A stretch of DNA of 64,000 bases from an uncultured Trueperaceae bacterium (GTDB lineage Bacteria; Deinococcota; Deinococci; Deinococcales; Trueperaceae), in contig CAVSGP010000002.1 in the NCBI GenBank assembly GCA_963727505.1, positions 224,001 through 288,000 of the forward strand. The letters run 5' to 3'. The notes under the pieces are model-generated. The model was not told where the DNA came from and did no database searches. It was given only the letters and a program-made list of their open reading frames with translations. Numbering within the stretch: the stretch's first letter is position 1; each line of letters starts with the position of its first letter. Below are positions 46,239 through 56,485 of this stretch, piece after piece. A program made the translations under genes and the position numbers.

Positions 46239-48005
46239 CTAGCGGCTCGCCATGAGGGTTACGCCCGCGGATGCGACGACGGAGAGCTGATCAGCCGTAA
46301 CGGTCAGCGGATCGATGAGACCAGCGTAGGTAGTCTGGTAAGGGAGCGCCCCGAGATCAGGCGCAGCGCCGCTGTAAGGGAGGCCCACATCGGTGCCTGC
46401 GGCGATAGCAGGGCTATCGGATCGCAGACTCAGGAACGATGCCTGACCCGGATCGGTGCTGTTGAAGCCAGGATCGCTAATCCCAAGGTCCCAGCTGTTG
46501 CTGGCAGAATCGGAACCCCACATGCCGGGGGCGCCGTCATAGGCGATATTGTTCCGCAGCACCGTGGTGCTACCGCCGATGAAAGCGTAACCACCATTAC
46601 CGAACGCGGTGTTGTTGTAGAAGTGCACGTCCCAGCCACTGTTCTCATCGAATCCGGCGGCCCGATTGTTGAAGGCGATGGAATTACGCACCATAGTGTG
46701 CTCATTGCCAGCGCCCCCGCCAGCCTTGATACCGTTGCCATTGCCATACGCGCCGCGGCCATTGTCATGACTGATGACGTTCTCGACGAGGGTGTTGGTC
46801 GAGCGCCAGGTGTCCACCCCGTCATCGGAGTTGCCGTAGAACAAGCTGAAGGCGATGACGTTGCCGTCGCCGGAAGACAACCCGATGCCGTCAGCATCGT
46901 CACCGATCTTGCCTGAAGGGTTGTGCAGGTCGTAGTTGCCGTAGGCGGTCACATACAGATAGTGGTTACGGTCGGCAGCGATGTTCTGAAAGCCGCTGAG
47001 CTCATTGTCGTGGCTCACCAGATTGATGAGCAAGTTATCGTGACCGTCGCGCACCACCACACCCTGCTGGGGACTATGCTGCACCTCGAAGTTGGCCAGC
47101 ACATTCCAACTCGCCCCGGACAGAGCCAGGTAGGCGTTGTCCTGACCGGGCACCAGATTGCTGCCGTCGAACACCGCCCACTCACCGGGATACGACGTCC
47201 ACACGATCGGGGCACTCTGCGTCCCCGACCGGGTGAACCGCTGCTGGATCGGATAGACACCACCACGCAGGTAGACCACGTCACCAGGCTGCACCACATC
47301 AGCAGCATGCTGCACAGTACGGAAGGCCTGATCGGCACTACGACCGGTGTTGCTGTCAGAACCCGCAGAATCCACGAACAACGTCGCAGGCGGGACCGAC
47401 CAGAAACTACCCGTCGGTCCCGGCACCGGAGTAGGATCAGGAGCCGGAGTCGGGTCGGGAGTCGGGGCCGGAGTCGGGGCCGGCGAGGGGTCGGGCGAAG
47501 GCGTCGGATCCGGTGCCGGAACCGGCGAAGGATCAGACGCCGAACCGTTGCGCACCACGAAACGACCCGTGATCACCGGCGCCGTACCACGACTCACCGT
47601 AGCCACAGCGGTCAGCGCATGCGCCCCATCCGACAACGTCACAGTATCCAACGTCATCGCGAACGGAGAACCATCCGCCACGCGTGTGGCAGCACCCTCA
47701 CACGCCACATCATCCAGATAGAAAGCCACCGACTGAATCCGCGGATTATCCCGCACGGACACAGTCACAGCACCAGAGATCGTCGCTCCATCCAACTCCT
47801 TCGCATCGATCGTAGTCGTCGACTGCGACACCACCATCAACTGGAGAGACTCCGCCGACAACGCATCCGGCGCCGTCCCACAAGCCGCCATCAACACCAT
47901 CACGAGCGCGCCAACCGCCCACAGCCACACGCGCCGCGCTCGGACTGACGTCAGAAGGGTTGCAAAGGGGGTCTTTCGATCCGCATTCGTAAGCATCCGA
48001 ACCAT
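46239..48005 (-). CDS. Lipoprotein: Ig-like domain + Pro/Asp/Thr linker + right-handed parallel beta-helix (PL9 pectate lyase-like)
   Basis: Lipobox MAAC, V.FYLD...DG.H.LTA, PDPTP repeats, PGDVVYLRGG.Y, DADG, NSDDG.D, GNGNGIKAGG. Confidence 0.85.
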   Translation of the reverse strand: MVRMLTNADRKTPFATLLTSVRARRVWLWAVGALVMVLMAACGTAPDALSAESLQLMVVSQSTTTIDAKELDGATISGAVTVSVRDNPRIQSVAFYLDDVACEGAATRVADGSPFAMTLDTVTLSDGAHALTAVATVSRGTAPVITGRFVVRNGSASDPSPVPAPDPTPSPDPSPAPTPAPTPDPTPAPDPTPVPGPTGSFWSVPPATLFVDSAGSDSNTGRSADQAFRTVQHAADVVQPGDVVYLRGGVYPIQQRFTRSGTQSAPIVWTSYPGEWAVFDGSNLVPGQDNAYLALSGASWNVLANFEVQHSPQQGVVVRDGHDNLLINLVSHDNELSGFQNIAADRNHYLYVTAYGNYDLHNPSGKIGDDADGIGLSSGDGNVIAFSLFYGNSDDGVDTWRSTNTLVENVISHDNGRGAYGNGNGIKAGGGAGNEHTMVRNSIAFNNRAAGFDENSGWDVHFYNNTAFGNGGYAFIGGSTTVLRNNIAYDGAPGMWGSDSASNSWDLGISDPGFNSTDPGQASFLSLRSDSPAIAAGTDVGLPYSGAAPDLGALPYQTTYAGLIDPLTVTADQLSVVASAGVTLMASR

Positions 48006-48036
48006 CTCCCGTGGTCGGAATGCAACCTGGTCCTAC

Positions 48037-48110
48037 CCCGGTCGGTTGCATCACTGGCTCCCCGCGTCCCTTGATGCCCAGGTCGGGAACAGCGGATCAT
48101 CGCCTCCGGG
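48037..48110 (-). ncRNA. c-di-GMP-II riboswitch aptamer (gene-proximal)
   Basis: CCCGG-AGGCGATGA-[stem]-CCTGGGCATC-[stem]-GGAGCCAGTGATGCAACCGA-CCGGG. Pseudoknot GCATC/GATGC, closing stem CCCGG/CCGGG. Confidence 0.85.
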
Positions 48111-48195
48111 ACCCCCCAAAAGGGGGAGCCATTGGTTTTCCTTGGGAGCTTGCACCGGCACGCCAGCGGAACGACGAGACCAAGCACAGCAAAGC

Positions 48196-48272
48196 CCTCG
48201 ACCGGTTGCGCCACTAGCTCGGCTCGTTCCAAGCGCCCAAGGATTACAGAACGAGCGTCAACGCCTTCGAGG
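48196..48272 (-). ncRNA. c-di-GMP-II riboswitch aptamer (gene-distal)
   Basis: CCTCGA-AGGCGTTGA-C-GCTCGTTC...TGGGCGCT..GAACGAGC-CGAGCTAGTGGCGCAACCGG-TCGAGG. Pseudoknot GCGC/GCGC, closing stem CCTCGA/TCGAGG. Confidence 0.85.
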
Positions 48273-48307
48273 TACTACACGCGCCCATCAAGAAACGCGC
48301 TAACCCA

Positions 48308-48316
48308 AGAGTACCA
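48308..48316 (-). promoter_or_regulatory. Candidate extended -10 for the riboswitch leader
   Basis: TGG-TACTCT about 35 nt upstream of the distal aptamer. Confidence 0.35.
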
Positions 48317-48748
48317 CCACCACACCAATACGGAGAGAGAACGCCCACACACACAGGCGATTCGAGCGACTTGCCTTCCAGGACAGACTTCCTGCCACGC
48401 CGACCGTGAACGGCGCCAACAACGCCGCGGGACATTTCGCCCTTGACGGGAGCCCCCCGAAGTTCGGTTGCCCCCTCCACCGGCAGCGTCGCTCCGCGTT
48501 CCAACTCCACGCTGACGATGTAAATCTCACCGTCCTCGACGTTCTCCGTGGCGTGCGTCGCCAACGAGCTGGGCCGCGGCTCCGTGCAGTCCCGGTCGAC
48601 GATGTCGACCTGCGCTGCGCGTCGCCTGCTCCCCATCGCCTGCTCCCCCAAGAACGACGGTAGACGGGGCGGCGAGACGGCGGAGTGACACCGCCTGGGG
48701 GTCCCAGACCGCAACGAGCGTCCCCTATACTCTCCTGCAAGGAGGCGC

Positions 48749-49496
48749 ATGCGCGACGTGGAACGCGGCCTGTCGCAGGAGCAGCGGCTGATGCGCCAAT
48801 CCTGCCGAAGCTTCGTGAACGAGACGGTGACGCCCTTATCGCCGAGGAGGTCGCACGCGGGGACTCCGGCCTGGCCGACAAGCTCTCTCAGGTCTAGAAG
48901 GTCAGCGTACTGCTGCGCAACATCGCCCCGCGCCACCTGCAGGAGCGGTGGTTCCCGGAGCTCGTCGGCGATCGAGCTTCCTCCTTGCCCACTGCCTGAC
49001 CGAGAACGACGCGCTCTCCAAGGCGGGCGTGTACTTCAAGCCCGACAAGATCCTTCAAGCCGCCAAGAACCTCGGCGTCGGCATGGCCGCCTTCGAGCGG
49101 ACCGCCGAGTACGTCCAGACCTACGTGCAGGGCGGCAAGATCCTCATCAAGCACCAGGCCGTGGCGCTGCGGCTGGCGGCCATGGCGACCAAGCTGAGCG
49201 CGGTGCGCGCGCTGCTCCGGGAGGCCGCGCGCGAGGTCGATGCACGCGGCCCGGACGCGGACCCGCTGTGCAACATGACGAAGGTCTACGCCTCGGAGGA
49301 GATCTTCGAGGTCGCCAAGCACGCCGTGGAGCTGCACGGCGGCTCCGGCATGATGCTGGAGCAGGGCATCGAGAAGCTCTTCCGCGACGCCGCCATCTTC
49401 CTCCACATGGACGCCACCGTCGACATCTCGAAGTTCAAGATCGTGAAATCGATGTTCCCGGACACGGCAGGGACCTACGCCGGGGTGGAGGGGTAG
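48749..49496 (+). pseudogene. Acyl-CoA dehydrogenase pseudogene
   Basis: SD AAGGAGG. N-terminal LSQEQRLMRQSCRSFV, EEVARGD, internal TAG 48895-48897, frameshifts, middle domain missing after CLTE, intact C-terminal AVELHGG.G......IEKLFRDA. Confidence 0.88.
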
Positions 49497-49694
49497 GCAG
49501 AAGCGGGCGACTCGGCCCCTAGCTGCTGCTCTTCCCCGGCGAGGGGATCACGGCCTACCGCGGCCATGCCAACGTGTGGGGCGTACCCGGTTGGCTGGAA
49601 GCGGAAGGCCCCGCATCCGCAGCTCTCCCCATTCAGTCCAAGCGCTTACCCTTCCCTCCAACGCTTGCCGGAAAGCGAGTGACCTCAGCCGAGC

Positions 49695-52244
<2,550 letters not shown>

Positions 52245-53306
52245 TTACTGGGAGATGGCGTCGTAAACGCGCGTGTCCACGGCGTCGGAGAAGCTCACCG
52301 GGTTCTTGAGCAGGCCGACCTTCACCAGCAGACCTACCGAGCTGTCGAAGGCCGCCTTGTCGAGGTGCCCGATCTTGGTGTCGGCAGCGGGCTTGACGAG
52401 CTTCGCCACCTCGGCCATCTGCCAGGTCTGGTGGATCACCGGGCTCTGGCGCGTGCCTGAGCCAGCACAGGTATCACCGCAGTGCTTGAGAACGAGGTCG
52501 ACCGCTTCCTTCTGGTGATCGATGGCATACTGCCAACCCTTGATGCTCGCCCTGAGGAAGCGTTCGGCGACCTGCATGCCGGTGAGCCCCGAGCCCTTGA
52601 AGTTGGTGCTGCTGAGCACCTTCGGCGTGGTGAAGATGTTGTCCTCGAGGAGGTTCGCGCCGACGTCTGCGGGGTTGAGGATGACCAACGAGTCGAGCGG
52701 GTACCCGAGCCCCACGATCTGGTCGAGCTCGTTGTAGGTCATGGCGCTCGCGACGTCGACCTTGTTGGGGAACACCAACGAGGGGTCGAAGGCGTACACC
52801 ACGGTCTTGACGTCGGGGTTCTTGACCGTGGGATCGAGGTTGGAGGTGAAGCCGGCGGCGGCGAAGACCGCCTGCGCCGCGAACTCGTTGCCGAAGCCCC
52901 ACACGCCAACGGTCTTGCCGGCGAGGTCCTGGATGCTGCGGATGCCGGAACTCTTGAGAGCGACCATCCGGTAGCCCGAGTCCTGGAAGATCTGCGCGAT
53001 CGTGACGACGTCGAGACCCTTCTCGCGCTGCGCCAGCATGTTGGCGACCCAGTCGGTACCGAAGTCGGCGTTGCCAGAGCCGACCTGCACGGTGGGGTTG
53101 ACGTTGCCGCCGTCGAGGATGTTGACGTCGAGCCCTTCGTCGGCGTAGAAACCCTTGTCCTGCGCCACGAAGTAGCCGGCGAACTGCGCCTGCGGGAACC
53201 ACTTCGATTGGAAGTTGATCTTGATCAAGTTCTGCGCCATGCCGAAGGGCAGGCCCAGAAGCGCGAGCGCGAGCAGGGTGAAAGCTGCGCGGGAGAATCG
53301 TCTCAT
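52245..53306 (-). CDS. ABC transporter substrate-binding protein (NMT1/THI5-like, probably pyrimidine)
   Basis: Signal peptide. KWFPQAQFAGYFVA..KGFY..EGLDV, AMTYNE, FLRASIKGW.YA. Confidence 0.92.
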   Translation of the reverse strand: MRRFSRAAFTLLALALLGLPFGMAQNLIKINFQSKWFPQAQFAGYFVAQDKGFYADEGLDVNILDGGNVNPTVQVGSGNADFGTDWVANMLAQREKGLDVVTIAQIFQDSGYRMVALKSSGIRSIQDLAGKTVGVWGFGNEFAAQAVFAAAGFTSNLDPTVKNPDVKTVVYAFDPSLVFPNKVDVASAMTYNELDQIVGLGYPLDSLVILNPADVGANLLEDNIFTTPKVLSSTNFKGSGLTGMQVAERFLRASIKGWQYAIDHQKEAVDLVLKHCGDTCAGSGTRQSPVIHQTWQMAEVAKLVKPAADTKIGHLDKAAFDSSVGLLVKVGLLKNPVSFSDAVDTRVYDAISQ

Positions 53307-53474
53307 GTCTCCTCCTCCACGTTGGTCCTTCGGGTCGGAAGCCGTGCACGCGTCCGGGATCGGCCGACGGCGTCCGTGAGAAGTGGATTTGCCCGCGGCG
53401 TGAGGTGCCTGGCTCGAAGGACGGGAAGGGGCACGGCGGCACCGCAGGCGGGCGGCTGTCGTCAGGGACCCATA

Positions 53475-54632
53475 TCAGGACCCCCTAGAGGACGGGTGCC
53501 ATGCCGTCGTGAGGCGTTCGAAGAGCAGGATGGTCCCGTACAGAAGCATCGAAATGACGCTCGAGACCAGGATGGCCGCGAACACCACGTCAAAAGCGCC
53601 GCGGTGGGCGGACAGGCTGATGCGCTGGCCGAGCCCGTTGGGCGGGCCGGGGATCAGGAACTCGGCAACGATCACGCTCACGATGGCGATCACCACCGAG
53701 ATCTTCAGCGCATTGAAGACGAAGGGCAGCGAGTTCGGGAACCGCAGCGCCGTGAACACCTGCCGCGGCGTGGCCGCGTAGGCGCGGAGCAGATCGAGCC
53801 GCAAGGGGTCGACGCGCGTGAGGCCCTGCACAGTGTTGAGCACCACAGGGAAGAAGGTGACGATGACGACCACCGCCGCCTTCGACTGCCAGTCGACCCC
53901 GAACGCACGGCCCAGCACCGGCGCCAGGCCCACGATCGGCACCGCCCCGAACGCGGTAGCCAGCGGCAGGAACCCTCGCTGCAGGAAGCGACTCATCGCC
54001 ACGGACACGCCGGCCGTGTAGCCGGCGACGAGGCCGATGACGAAGCCCAGCAGCACCTCCTTCACGAAGGTGACGTAGCTGTCCTGCAACAACACCGGCC
54101 AGGAGGTGACCAGAGCGGTGAAGATGTCCGTCACGCGCGGGAAGATGCCCATGGGTACGCGGTACCCCACCACCAGCCCCTCCCACAACAGCAGGACCAC
54201 CAGCGGCACCATGGCCACGGGCAGGATGCGCTGCAGGCGCTTGTCGAACGGCGCCGTCTCAGGCCCCAGCGACGTCAGGCTCACGCGCCCGAGGGCCACC
54301 AGCGACGCCGCCACGAACCCCCCGAAGGCGGCCCAGTAGCCCCAGGCGCCGGGGCCTGCAAGCACTCGCTGGCCGAGCAGGCTGAGGAAGGCTCCCAGCA
54401 GCGCGACCGGAGCCAGCGCGGCAGCGCTCCGTAGGCGGCCGTCGATGGCCAGCACGACGGTGACGAGCCAGACGATGAGCGGCCACGCCCCCAGCCGCGC
54501 GAGCGCATCCGGGCCGCCCGCCGTGAGCGGGCCGAAGGTGCCCACCAGCGCCACCGCCAGGCACGCCAGCGCCGGCCACGTGGGGCGCCGGGCGCGGGCG
54601 CCTGCGACGACGCGGCGCGCGCGGCCGGTCAT
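53475..54632 (-). CDS. ABC transporter permease (SsuC/TauC type)
   Basis: P.VGLAP, FFPV..NTVQGL, LRFPNSLPF.F..LK. ATGA overlap with the upstream permease. Confidence 0.92.
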   Translation of the reverse strand: MTGRARRVVAGARARRPTWPALACLAVALVGTFGPLTAGGPDALARLGAWPLIVWLVTVVLAIDGRLRSAAALAPVALLGAFLSLLGQRVLAGPGAWGYWAAFGGFVAASLVALGRVSLTSLGPETAPFDKRLQRILPVAMVPLVVLLLWEGLVVGYRVPMGIFPRVTDIFTALVTSWPVLLQDSYVTFVKEVLLGFVIGLVAGYTAGVSVAMSRFLQRGFLPLATAFGAVPIVGLAPVLGRAFGVDWQSKAAVVVIVTFFPVVLNTVQGLTRVDPLRLDLLRAYAATPRQVFTALRFPNSLPFVFNALKISVVIAIVSVIVAEFLIPGPPNGLGQRISLSAHRGAFDVVFAAILVSSVISMLLYGTILLFERLTTAWHPSSRGS

Positions 54633-56485
54633 GGCCGGTCCCAAGGCGCCGTGACGCGCTGCACCAGCCCGACCAGCGCCACCAGCCCGATGCCCAGCGC
54701 CGCGGAGATCAGCAGCAGGATCCACAGGTCGGAGACGTTGCCAGCCTGCACCTGGCCGATGATGTCGTAACCGAGCCCGCGGCGGTTGTTGGATTCCGTC
54801 TCCGCCACCAGCGCCCCGACCAGGGCCGCTGCGGTGCCCAGCTTGAGGCTGGTGAAAAGGAACGGCACCGCCGCCGGGAAGCGCACCTTGAAGAACACCT
54901 GGAACGGGCTGGCGGCGTAGCTCTTCATGAGGTCGAGCGCCAGAGGGTCGACCGAGCGCAGGCCGGTGACGGTACCCACCGTGACCGGGAAGAACGCGAT
55001 GTACGCGCCGATCAGAGCCGTGGGGATGAGGCTCGTCTGGACGGTGATGCCGACGTTGCCGAGGACCAGCAGCAGCACCGGCACCAGCGCGATGATCGGC
55101 ACCGTCTGGGAGGCGATCACCCAGGGCAGGAGCGCCTGCTCGAGCGGCCGCAGGAACACGAACAACACCGCCAGCAGCACCCCGAAGGCTCCGCCGAGCA
55201 GCAGTGCCGACACCGTGCCGGCGGTGGTGTAGAGCACGCCGCGCACGATGTTGCGCTGGTCCGTGATGGGGTAGTGGGTGAAGTACGGCACCACACTCGC
55301 TGCGATCCAGTTGGGGAAGGGCACCGGGTGTTGCGGCATGCTGTAGAAACACTGCATCACCGTGCTGCCGCACGCGGGCCGCGCGTAGTAGGTGTAGTCG
55401 GCGGCCCACACCACGCTCCCCGGTTGCGGCGCCGCTGCCAGCGTGATGGTGCCCTCGCGCACGTCGCTGACAAGATAGTCGCGGTATTGACGCACCTCGG
55501 CGTTGCGCCGGGGCGGCGTGACGAAGGTGACGACCGGCCCGTCGCGCGTGTACTGGCTTCCGGGGGTCATGAGCTGGCCGTCCACGGTCACCAGGCCGCG
55601 GGAAGAGGCGAAGGTGAAGCGCGCGCGCTGACCGTCGACGCGTTCTCCCGTCCGCTCCGGCGTCGAAGACAGCGCCGTGCCGTCCACGTACACCTGGCGC
55701 GACGGATCCGTGTCGACAACGGGGGCGTGCGCGAAGGTGAAGGTGCGGTTGCTGCCGTCGACCGCGCCGCTGAGCCGCTCGGCGAGACGCACCGCGTCGT
55801 GGCCCACGCGCGGCCGGACGCTGGCAGGCCGGGCGAGCGCGACGAGACCCTTGGCCGGGTCGAGCACCGCGTAGTCGCCGGTGATGCGACGCACCTCGGC
55901 GTTGAAGGGGGGCGCCTGCGCGAACGTGACCTTGTCACCCTTGGCCTGGTAGTCCCGCCCCGGCACCAGCACCCGGTCGCCCACCACGATCGGGCCCGAG
56001 GCGTCATCGAAGCTGAAGGCGGTCGCGCGGCCGTCGGCGCGCTCGACGGAGTCGGCGGTACCGGCATGCAGCAGCTTTCCGCCGAGGTAGAGGGGCGCCG
56101 CGGCGTCGACGCCGGCGGGCAGGCGGTACTCCAGGCGGGCGCTGTCGAGAGGGCCCTCGAGCCCCGAGCCCAGCTGCACCACGGGACGCGCCGACGCGCC
56201 CTCGAGACGCACGGTCGCCCCGTCTTGCTGGTAGCGGGCGGCCAGCGGAGCGCCGTCACGCACCAGCACGCCGTTCGCCGGGGCGGCATCGAACCTCAGG
56301 CTGGTTCCGCCGTTCGGCACCTCGGCGACGGGCTGAGCGACGCTGGTGGCGGTGACCCAGTTGCTGAGATCATGCATGCGCTGGCGGGCCAACGGCAGGC
56401 CGAAGAGCAGCGCGATCGGGTAGCCCAGGGCGATGGTCGCCAGCATCACGGCGATCACGGGCCAGGCGCGCCGCAGCCAGCTCAT
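54629..56485 (-). CDS. ABC transporter permease with ~330-aa extracytoplasmic repeat insertion
   Basis: N-terminal TM, beta-rich repeats, then a canonical permease core (SQTVPIIALVP, FFPV...GLRSVD, VRFPAAVPFLF). Confidence 0.9.
   Translation of the reverse strand: MSWLRRAWPVIAVMLATIALGYPIALLFGLPLARQRMHDLSNWVTATSVAQPVAEVPNGGTSLRFDAAPANGVLVRDGAPLAARYQQDGATVRLEGASARPVVQLGSGLEGPLDSARLEYRLPAGVDAAAPLYLGGKLLHAGTADSVERADGRATAFSFDDASGPIVVGDRVLVPGRDYQAKGDKVTFAQAPPFNAEVRRITGDYAVLDPAKGLVALARPASVRPRVGHDAVRLAERLSGAVDGSNRTFTFAHAPVVDTDPSRQVYVDGTALSSTPERTGERVDGQRARFTFASSRGLVTVDGQLMTPGSQYTRDGPVVTFVTPPRRNAEVRQYRDYLVSDVREGTITLAAAPQPGSVVWAADYTYYARPACGSTVMQCFYSMPQHPVPFPNWIAASVVPYFTHYPITDQRNIVRGVLYTTAGTVSALLLGGAFGVLLAVLFVFLRPLEQALLPWVIASQTVPIIALVPVLLLVLGNVGITVQTSLIPTALIGAYIAFFPVTVGTVTGLRSVDPLALDLMKSYAASPFQVFFKVRFPAAVPFLFTSLKLGTAAALVGALVAETESNNRRGLGYDIIGQVQAGNVSDLWILLLISAALGIGLVALVGLVQRVTAPWDRP

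Follow-up and report, generated by a model that had tools for sequence, protein, structure and literature searches.

What would two class-II riboswitch aptamers for c-di-GMP (cyclic diguanosine monophosphate), a biofilm signal of bacteria, set one behind the other in the leader of a single gene for a lyase-like lipoprotein, do to the expression of that gene? The question is raised by a locus in a stretch of 64,000 nucleotides (hereafter the window) from an uncultured Trueperaceae bacterium of the phylum Deinococcota (GenBank assembly GCA_963727505.1, contig CAVSGP010000002.1, positions 224,001 to 288,000 of the forward strand). The window has a G+C content of about 70% and the source assembly comprises 3.26 Mb in 15 contigs; coordinates below are those of the window unless a contig or locus is named. 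The answer favoured here, which we regard as moderately probable, is that the pair acts on translation and not on transcription termination, that the proximal aptamer (A2) is its output stage and that it works as a c-di-GMP OFF switch.

The identity of the two elements was examined with cmscan, run on the whole window against Rfam 15, a check that an earlier note on this DNA had proposed. Only two matches reached gathering level, both to RF01786 (c-di-GMP-II, gathering score 53.5 bits) and both at the loci where the note had placed its class-II aptamers:

48277-48191, minus strand: distal c-di-GMP-II aptamer A1, pseudoknot GCGC/GCGC (RF01786, 63.5 bits, E 8.1e-12, model positions 1-84 of 84)
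48116-48031, minus strand: proximal c-di-GMP-II aptamer A2, pseudoknot GCAUC/GAUGC (RF01786, 58.3 bits, E 2.4e-10, model positions 1-84 of 84)

RF03169 and RF03170, the variant models, scored below RF01786 here and were dropped as overlapping clan members. The class-II c-di-GMP aptamer has a kink-turn and a pseudoknot, known from its crystal structure, and the cmscan alignments of A1 and A2 both show the UGA/GAG pair, the UGGGCRY loop and the 3′ signature GAGCYAGURRYGCAACCG. In a comparative set of 24 leaders, made up of the window locus and 23 distinct relatives, RNAalifold recovers both aptamers with compensatory changes in helices P1, P2 and P3 of A1, and 18 of 53 consensus pairs stay paired despite changes on both sides. 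Examples of the covarying pairs are alignment columns 12:89 (AU 11, CG 8), 30:61 (GC 12, UA 5, AU 4) and 34:56 for A1, and columns 197:275 and 218:245 (UA 11, CG 9) for A2. For the pseudoknot, which joins the P3 loop to the 3′ tail, an alignment of all 10 class-II aptamers from the source genome was used; its five pairs are standard in 50/50 cells, as against 10-62% with the partner slid, three of the five vary on both sides and the covariation score is reached by 0/500 shuffles, so the difference between the copies (GCGC/GCGC versus GCAUC/GAUGC) is indeed compensatory, as the note had it. The family assignment passes every test that could be run, and both elements are accordingly classed as genuine class-II c-di-GMP aptamers, with c-di-GMP as their presumed selective ligand.

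The two aptamers lie in tandem on one strand, separated in the window by a linker of 74 nt, and their leader reads as non-coding from its sequence. Intrinsic termination was considered as the mode of action and rejected: no terminator-like site was found between A1 (48277) and the start codon (47996) or after either aptamer, the only one detected is on the far side of A1, upstream (48359-48342, minus strand), and the scan's total of such sites equals the shuffle expectation.

Conservation of the pair was assessed in two collections. The 18 closest homologs of the downstream protein in 128 genomes of the same bacterial family gave 15 evaluable loci, with L017, L029 and L032 left out as contig ends interrupt them, and 13 of the 15 have two aptamers upstream (in L020 the second one best fits the GAG variant model). 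The exceptions are L018, which has one aptamer and a divergent second, and L027, which has none at gathering level. A metagenome search with the exact A2-core pattern returned 39 loci, all 39 cores scoring above the gathering threshold, and a second gathering-level aptamer lies upstream in 28 of the 36 loci having enough upstream sequence; among the eight without one (L051, L055, L060, L061, L063, L073, L074 and L082) the distal-type loop signature is still present in six. A family-wide census of aptamers amounted to 557 matches in all. The types are invariant with position, the distal aptamer carrying GGGCGC/GCGC and the proximal one GGGCAUC/GAUGC, and A2 of the window is 76% identical to the proximal aptamer of a paralogous pair on contig C9 versus 55% to its neighbour A1. 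The linker measures 44-53 nt in 11 of the 15 orthologous leaders. These comparisons show the pair to be conserved, with members that are specialised according to their position.

A run of four to eight U directly follows the distal P1 3′ strand in 10/24 leaders, from high-G+C genomes (L013, L016, L019, L022, L024, L026, L033, L045, L070 and L083), while the window has only CUUUG at this place. Candidate roles for the run are a terminator tract, a protein-binding site or chance.

The gene behind the pair is the following:

46239-47996, minus strand: regulated gene for a lipoprotein-like protein of 585 amino acids, which joins a right-handed, PL9-like beta-helix to a Big_7 immunoglobulin (Ig) domain and a Pro/Thr linker (Pfam and PDB matches)

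The ATG at 47996 is its most probable start codon, in preference to the one at 48005 used by the ORF finder (open reading frame, ORF, 48005-46239, minus strand). The former is located 9 nt after GGGAG, and the GGAUGC around it recurs in almost every one of the 24 aligned leaders (L056 has GGGUGC); the latter abuts the Shine-Dalgarno sequence and is not present in the orthologs. Pfam matches of the protein are to Beta_helix (PF13229, 8.6e-11), Pel9A-like_beta_helix (PF22842, 4e-9) and Big_7 (3.3e-6), and its closest solved relative is the pectate lyase Pel9A (PDB 1ru4, E 4.3e-19, residues 210-554), with the rhamnogalacturonan lyase of PDB 5olq as a further match (E 3.2e-11). The Pel9A alignment spans chain residues 18-397 of 400 and the motifs ADGxG, NSDDGxD and GNGNGxK are common to both proteins; these presumably hold the calcium-binding aspartates and the catalytic lysine of Pel9A. 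The beta-helix thus appears homologous to Pel9A over its catalytic domain, acidic and lysine motifs included, and is assigned to PL9 as a Pel9A-like member. The N-terminus (...RARRVWLWAVGALVMVLMAAC, followed by G), read by eye, shows a charged n-region, a hydrophobic core and a lipobox-like LMAAC. Given the beta-helix, this lipobox-like motif and Pel9A as the closest solved relative, it was reasonable to describe the product, as had been done, as a possible matrix-remodelling enzyme.

How could A2 reach the start codon of this gene? Two elements between the aptamer and the coding sequence are concerned:

48027-48020, minus strand: switching strand GGUUGCAU, complement of AUGCAACC in A2 (48051-48044), with a GCAU that also pairs with AUGC at the start codon
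48023-47993, minus strand: start-codon hairpin formed by GCAUUCCGACC, loop ACGGGAGAU and GGUUCGGAUGC, with the Shine-Dalgarno sequence GGGAG (48010-48006) in the loop and AUG (47996-47994) in the stem

The earlier note had reported competing sequences on both sides of A2, and the complementarities exist at the coordinates it gave, with very different degrees of conservation. The competitor just before the Shine-Dalgarno sequence, GGTTGCAT (48027-48020), is the exact 8-nt complement of ATGCAACC (48051-48044). It is both conserved and covarying: 19/24 leaders have, downstream, 8 nt or more of exact complementarity to the A2 pseudoknot 3′ strand, GAUGCAACC, and GGUUGCAU is positioned 17 nt downstream of GAUGCAACC in the window. 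The resulting anti-A2 helix has nine pairs, standard in 124/124 cells among the 14 genome-derived leaders versus 22-39% when slid, reaches a probability of at least 0.46 in 11/15 leaders (unconstrained ensemble), and in L018 shows a double compensatory change at two pairs (GCAACC to GCGGCC with GGUUGC to GGCCGC). The start-codon hairpin has 12 pairs, 93.2% of them standard over the 24 leaders versus 23-41% when slid, is also recovered by RNAalifold and has an energy by itself of -13.8 to -19.4 kcal/mol. The paralogous C9 leader is of the same design, with a perfect 10-pair stem across AUG.

Locus L018 (880-999, identical to L011) deserves mention in its own right. Its proximal element falls below the Rfam cut-off, the near-invariant GCAACC being replaced by GCGGCC, and the downstream competitor is altered in step; the element is either a ligand-blind structural switch or an altered-specificity aptamer.

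Upstream of A2, the competitor that had been proposed in the linker, TGGCTCCCC (48131-48123), is in the window exactly complementary over 9 nt to GGGGAGCCA (48063-48055). However, a linker complement of at least 8 nt to GGGGAGCCA occurs in 1/24 leaders, the window alone, and is lacking even in the closest relative L016, which rules out TGGCTCCCC as a conserved anti-aptamer. The conserved upstream competitor of A2 is instead a hairpin in which the P1 5′ strand of the aptamer is caught up:

48135-48106, minus strand: hairpin Hb, in which the 3′ end of the linker, GGCUCCCCC, pairs with GGGGGGUCC, overlapping the A2 P1 5′ strand (predicted in 24/24 leaders)

Hb is predicted as a local hairpin in 24/24 leaders, has a GNRA loop in eight and shows several pair types at five of its eight positions. 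It is mutually exclusive with A2 P1, itself canonical in 19-24 of the 24 leaders at seven positions, the counts for both helices stemming from per-sequence folds and being biased towards pairing. Conservation and covariation are thus seen for three alternative helices: the anti-A2 helix, the hairpin at the start codon and Hb, the putative decoy for P1.

From these helices a mechanism may be proposed. In the ligand-free state A2 would hold GGUUGCAU and Hb would hold the 5′ strand of A2 P1; the start-codon hairpin would thereby lose its base and AUG would be exposed. With c-di-GMP bound, A2 would retain its own strands, GCAU would close an 11-pair hairpin over AUG and translation would drop. The A2 pseudoknot strand is GAUGC instead of the usual GYGC, probably as it must mimic the GGAUGC of the start codon.

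The direction of the switch is most likely translational OFF, meaning that ligand binding would repress the PL9-like surface lyase at high c-di-GMP, because the GCAU released by ligand-bound A2 completes the AUG-burying stem, nothing freed could open that stem, and computed AUG accessibility falls. When A2 was forced to its native fold, computed AUG accessibility went down in 13/24 leaders and up in 0/24 (in the window from 0.19 to 0.02), and the sequences set free by binding include none with complementarity to the strands of this hairpin. The opposite direction, in which c-di-GMP would raise expression of the lyase-like protein, is how the characterised Clostridioides difficile class-II riboswitch operates, which is called an ‘on’ switch in PMC9495366. 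An ON layout is also suggested within the source genome itself, where a singlet aptamer (C4:785209-785293, minus strand) stands 18 nt before the start codon of a pilin-like gene. Its P1 5′ strand, UCCCUUCGG, is complementary to its own Shine-Dalgarno region, CCGGAGGGA, so that it reads as translational ON, opposite in sign to the tandem studied here. At the tandem, however, the ligand-released GCAU completes the AUG-burying stem rather than competing with it, so that an ON switch is very unlikely.

Translational repression through A2 has to be weighed against several results in addition to the C. difficile precedent. AUG is mostly paired even with no constraint, its median unpaired probability being 0.14 in the equilibrium model, and forcing A2 native makes no difference in 11/24 leaders, in which case the switch would have to be kinetic. 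A separate run with 15 leaders left AUG accessibility not lowered by locking A2 in L016, L019, L026 and L033, and forcing A1 native has no consistent effect either, lowering AUG accessibility in six and raising it in nine of the 24 leaders. The folding calculations cover secondary structure, with the pseudoknot and the ligand energy outside the model. The covariation of the anti-A2 helix comes from one lineage only, in which the aptamer core itself is altered, and as the metagenome leaders were picked by the exact A2 core, the conservation of A2 among them is inflated and partly built in.

What the distal aptamer contributes is a separate question, and it involves two further elements:

48242-48230, minus strand: A1 loop CCUUGGGCGCUUG, which contributes the 5′ strand to the A1 pseudoknot and is targeted by the linker motif
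48158-48140, minus strand: conserved linker motif CCGGUGCAAGCUCCCAAGG (family GGUnAAGnnCCCA), candidate anti-aptamer for A1 (conserved in 24 leaders)

Because compensatory pairs occur in all three of its helices, A1 is taken to be a functional sensor under selection, with its own conserved competitor in the linker. Within the linker motif G and CCC are invariant and GGU nearly so. The A1 loop of the window is complementary to 48152-48140 at 12/13 positions, and the minimum-energy fold of window A1 with the linker has the motif bound to the loop; in similar folds of aptamer plus linker the motif is paired with the A1 loop and/or AACCGG in about 17/24 leaders by manual count. The same motif family follows the GCGC-type aptamers beside the two GH26 genes of the genome, where it lies within an AUG-burying hairpin. 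A2 has a conserved translational platform and A1 a conserved motif that is a candidate anti-aptamer. Complementarity and accessibility calculations on the 24 leaders found no conserved link from A1 to the ribosome-binding site, and the same leaders show no consistent secondary-structure coupling between A1 and A2, such as a cooperative, glycine-like riboswitch with one platform would require. Of the ‘two-aptamer switch’ of the earlier note, the arrangement is supported, two aptamers on one strand with no terminator-like site found between them. A dose response to c-di-GMP that is sharpened by the pair is a plausible consequence.

Two ways of joining A1 to the output can be weighed on this basis. 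The pair could be an integrated device with one shared platform, a cooperative helix relay in which A1 binding would free the linker motif, the motif would weaken Hb and A2 P1 would form. The short linkers (44-53 nt in 11/15 leaders) leave little space for a separate platform, the A2 P1 5′ strand is sequestered by Hb in 24/24 leaders with the linker motif directly abutting Hb, in about 10/24 leaders (counted by eye) CCCAC of the motif is able to pair with the GUGG(G) that begins the 5′ strand of Hb, and A2-type aptamers are almost never single. However, the computed coupling of the two aptamers, each in its native fold, has a mean of +0.3 kcal/mol over the 24 leaders with no consistent sign (below -1 in six, above +1 in six), the probability of Hb is the same after removal of A1 in most leaders, and local folds always favour Hb over the pairing of motif with Hb, which is moreover lacking in the window, L013, L019, L026, L078 and L083. 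A relay from A1 to A2 through Hb is not supported by these calculations and is considered unlikely.

Alternatively, A1 and A2 could be two independent, ‘pseudo-cooperative’ OFF riboswitches, the linker freed by A1 binding pairing with either the start strand or the Shine-Dalgarno sequence. This is the class, multiple-platform and pseudo-cooperative, to which the tandem c-di-GMP-II arrangements in print are assigned (PMC9481103), and wherever GCGC-type aptamers adjoin a gene, an AUG-burying hairpin has the motif family as its 5′ strand. Candidates in the window are two CUCCC tracts (48147-48143 and 48128-48124) opposite GGGAG, and the linker just after A1 is strongly complementary to the start strand or Shine-Dalgarno region in L033 (z -4.3), L070 (-4.1), L026 (-2.5), L071 (-2.2) and L045 (-1.6). 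Yet the linker-to-start duplex is significant in just these 5/24 leaders and not in the window (z +0.8), CUCCC with GGGAG makes only five pairs, and forcing A1 native has no consistent effect on the accessibility of AUG or of the Shine-Dalgarno sequence. A second start-sequestering strand just after A1 was therefore rejected for the window, from which it is absent, and independent action of this kind seems rather improbable.

A more speculative reading is that the pair, rather than being two copies of one riboswitch, is an obligate two-stage device which has spread to several genes of the lineage, made of a generic distal and a dedicated second-position aptamer, with A1 gating or tuning A2 kinetically during transcription. 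GAUGC would in that case be a start-codon mimic, and the closing strands of A2 would each have a decoy, Hb upstream and GGUUGCAU downstream. We hold this as a whole to be rather unlikely; if true, it would provide a digital, even band-pass, translational response to c-di-GMP that is invisible to equilibrium folding.

Is the tandem alone in its genome? The source genome has ten class-II matches, three tandem pairs included, and a control genome, that of Deinococcus radiodurans, also gives RF01786 matches. The eight aptamers outside the window are located at C9:145230-145503(-), C4:708550-708821(+), C4:710074-710156(+), C4:785209-785293(-), C15:12024-12106(+) and C5:154249-154334(-). The genes behind them all have signal or lipoprotein-type N-termini, and Pfam assigns GH26 to two of them, GH99 with a faint below-cutoff PKD to one, and a weak Ig-like domain to another, along with two small proteins that have no family. 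Together these genes suggest that surface glycan enzymes and fibres make up a regulon under c-di-GMP. That the riboswitch-led genes include two GH26-like and one GH99-like glycosidase lends a little support to repression of the lyase, and the GH26 leaders also fold into AUG-burying hairpins.

The region upstream of the pair contains the following genes:

49695-51890, minus strand: katG (catalase-peroxidase), 1.4 kb upstream of the aptamers
52245-56485, minus strand: NMT1-like binding protein and two ABC permease genes, upstream neighbours

No link of katG or the NMT1/ABC genes to the riboswitch locus was seen. No supported gene was found by Pfam or in the genomes of relatives within the 1.4 kb from katG to A1 (48278-49694). 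ORF 48749-49522 (plus strand) matches one other genome of the genus, only in pieces, and ORF 48300-48881 (minus strand) matches only G095, with an internal stop; Pfam gives no family for 48749-49522 or for the overlapping ORF 48244-48936 (minus strand). The 180 nt directly upstream of A1 are 84% identical to those of the closest relative L016 and include the terminator-like hairpin 48359-48342 (minus strand), and no sigma-70-type promoter was found upstream of A1.

Taken with its 23 relatives and the paralogous pairs, the locus offers a compact comparative example, open to testing, of how a tandem class-II sensor in Deinococcota would repress translation. Its conservation-backed alternative helices (anti-A2, start-codon and Hb) are each amenable to mutation. 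The suggested logic of the regulon is that at high c-di-GMP the glycan-cutting surface enzymes would be off and the fibre subunit on. Should A1 indeed gate A2, the pair would be a natural one-ligand RNA cascade, of interest to riboswitch engineers.

To our knowledge, almost all experimental work on class-II c-di-GMP riboswitches concerns Clostridia and transcriptional ON switches. The C. difficile class-II switch, the context of which we take to be pilA1, acts on transcription, whereas the locus in the window has no terminator. The two share the aptamer class and a cell-surface function, with ON there (PMC9495366) as opposed to the translational OFF reading here. For c-di-GMP-II, searches of open-access text returned, in the accessible passages, no account of a platform acting on translation, of a pair specialised by position or of a decoy hairpin for P1.

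Sherlock et al. (2022, RNA Biol, PMC9481103) have already published tandem c-di-GMP-II riboswitches, 59 doublets and 9 triplets, most of which precede a gene for a COG4932 surface anchor in Paraclostridium and its relatives, and the tandem arrangement itself is a well-documented further example of a principle already known. Like those tandems, the present locus has two complete same-ligand class-II aptamers in one leader of a surface-protein gene, with a steeper response to be expected. Unlike them, with their multiple platforms, it has a Deinococcota host, a PL9-like lyase as target and no terminators found, and its aptamers are position-specialised, with an identified translational platform only for the proximal one. 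Tandem c-di-GMP riboswitches have been reported as enriched in Deinococcota (Microb Genom 2025, PMC12452182); that survey covers the same phylum, and its passages on these riboswitches provide statistics, with no architecture, platform or target gene for Deinococcota. Several complete riboswitches in one 5′ untranslated region are also present in the triple-tandem c-di-GMP-I system Bc3-5 of Bacillus thuringiensis (PMC4759541), although these are of class I and of unrelated fold. With the tandem glycine riboswitch, as listed in Table 1 of PMC9481103, the locus shares two same-ligand aptamers, a single identified platform and a short conserved linker. The glycine aptamers dock on each other, whereas no secondary-structure coupling was found here, tertiary contact being outside the model. 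As for the regulated protein, it differs from Dickeya (Erwinia) chrysanthemi Pel9A (1ru4, PL9) in that its lyase-type beta-helix is accompanied by a signal of lipoprotein type, by a Big_7 Ig domain and by a linker rich in Pro and Thr.

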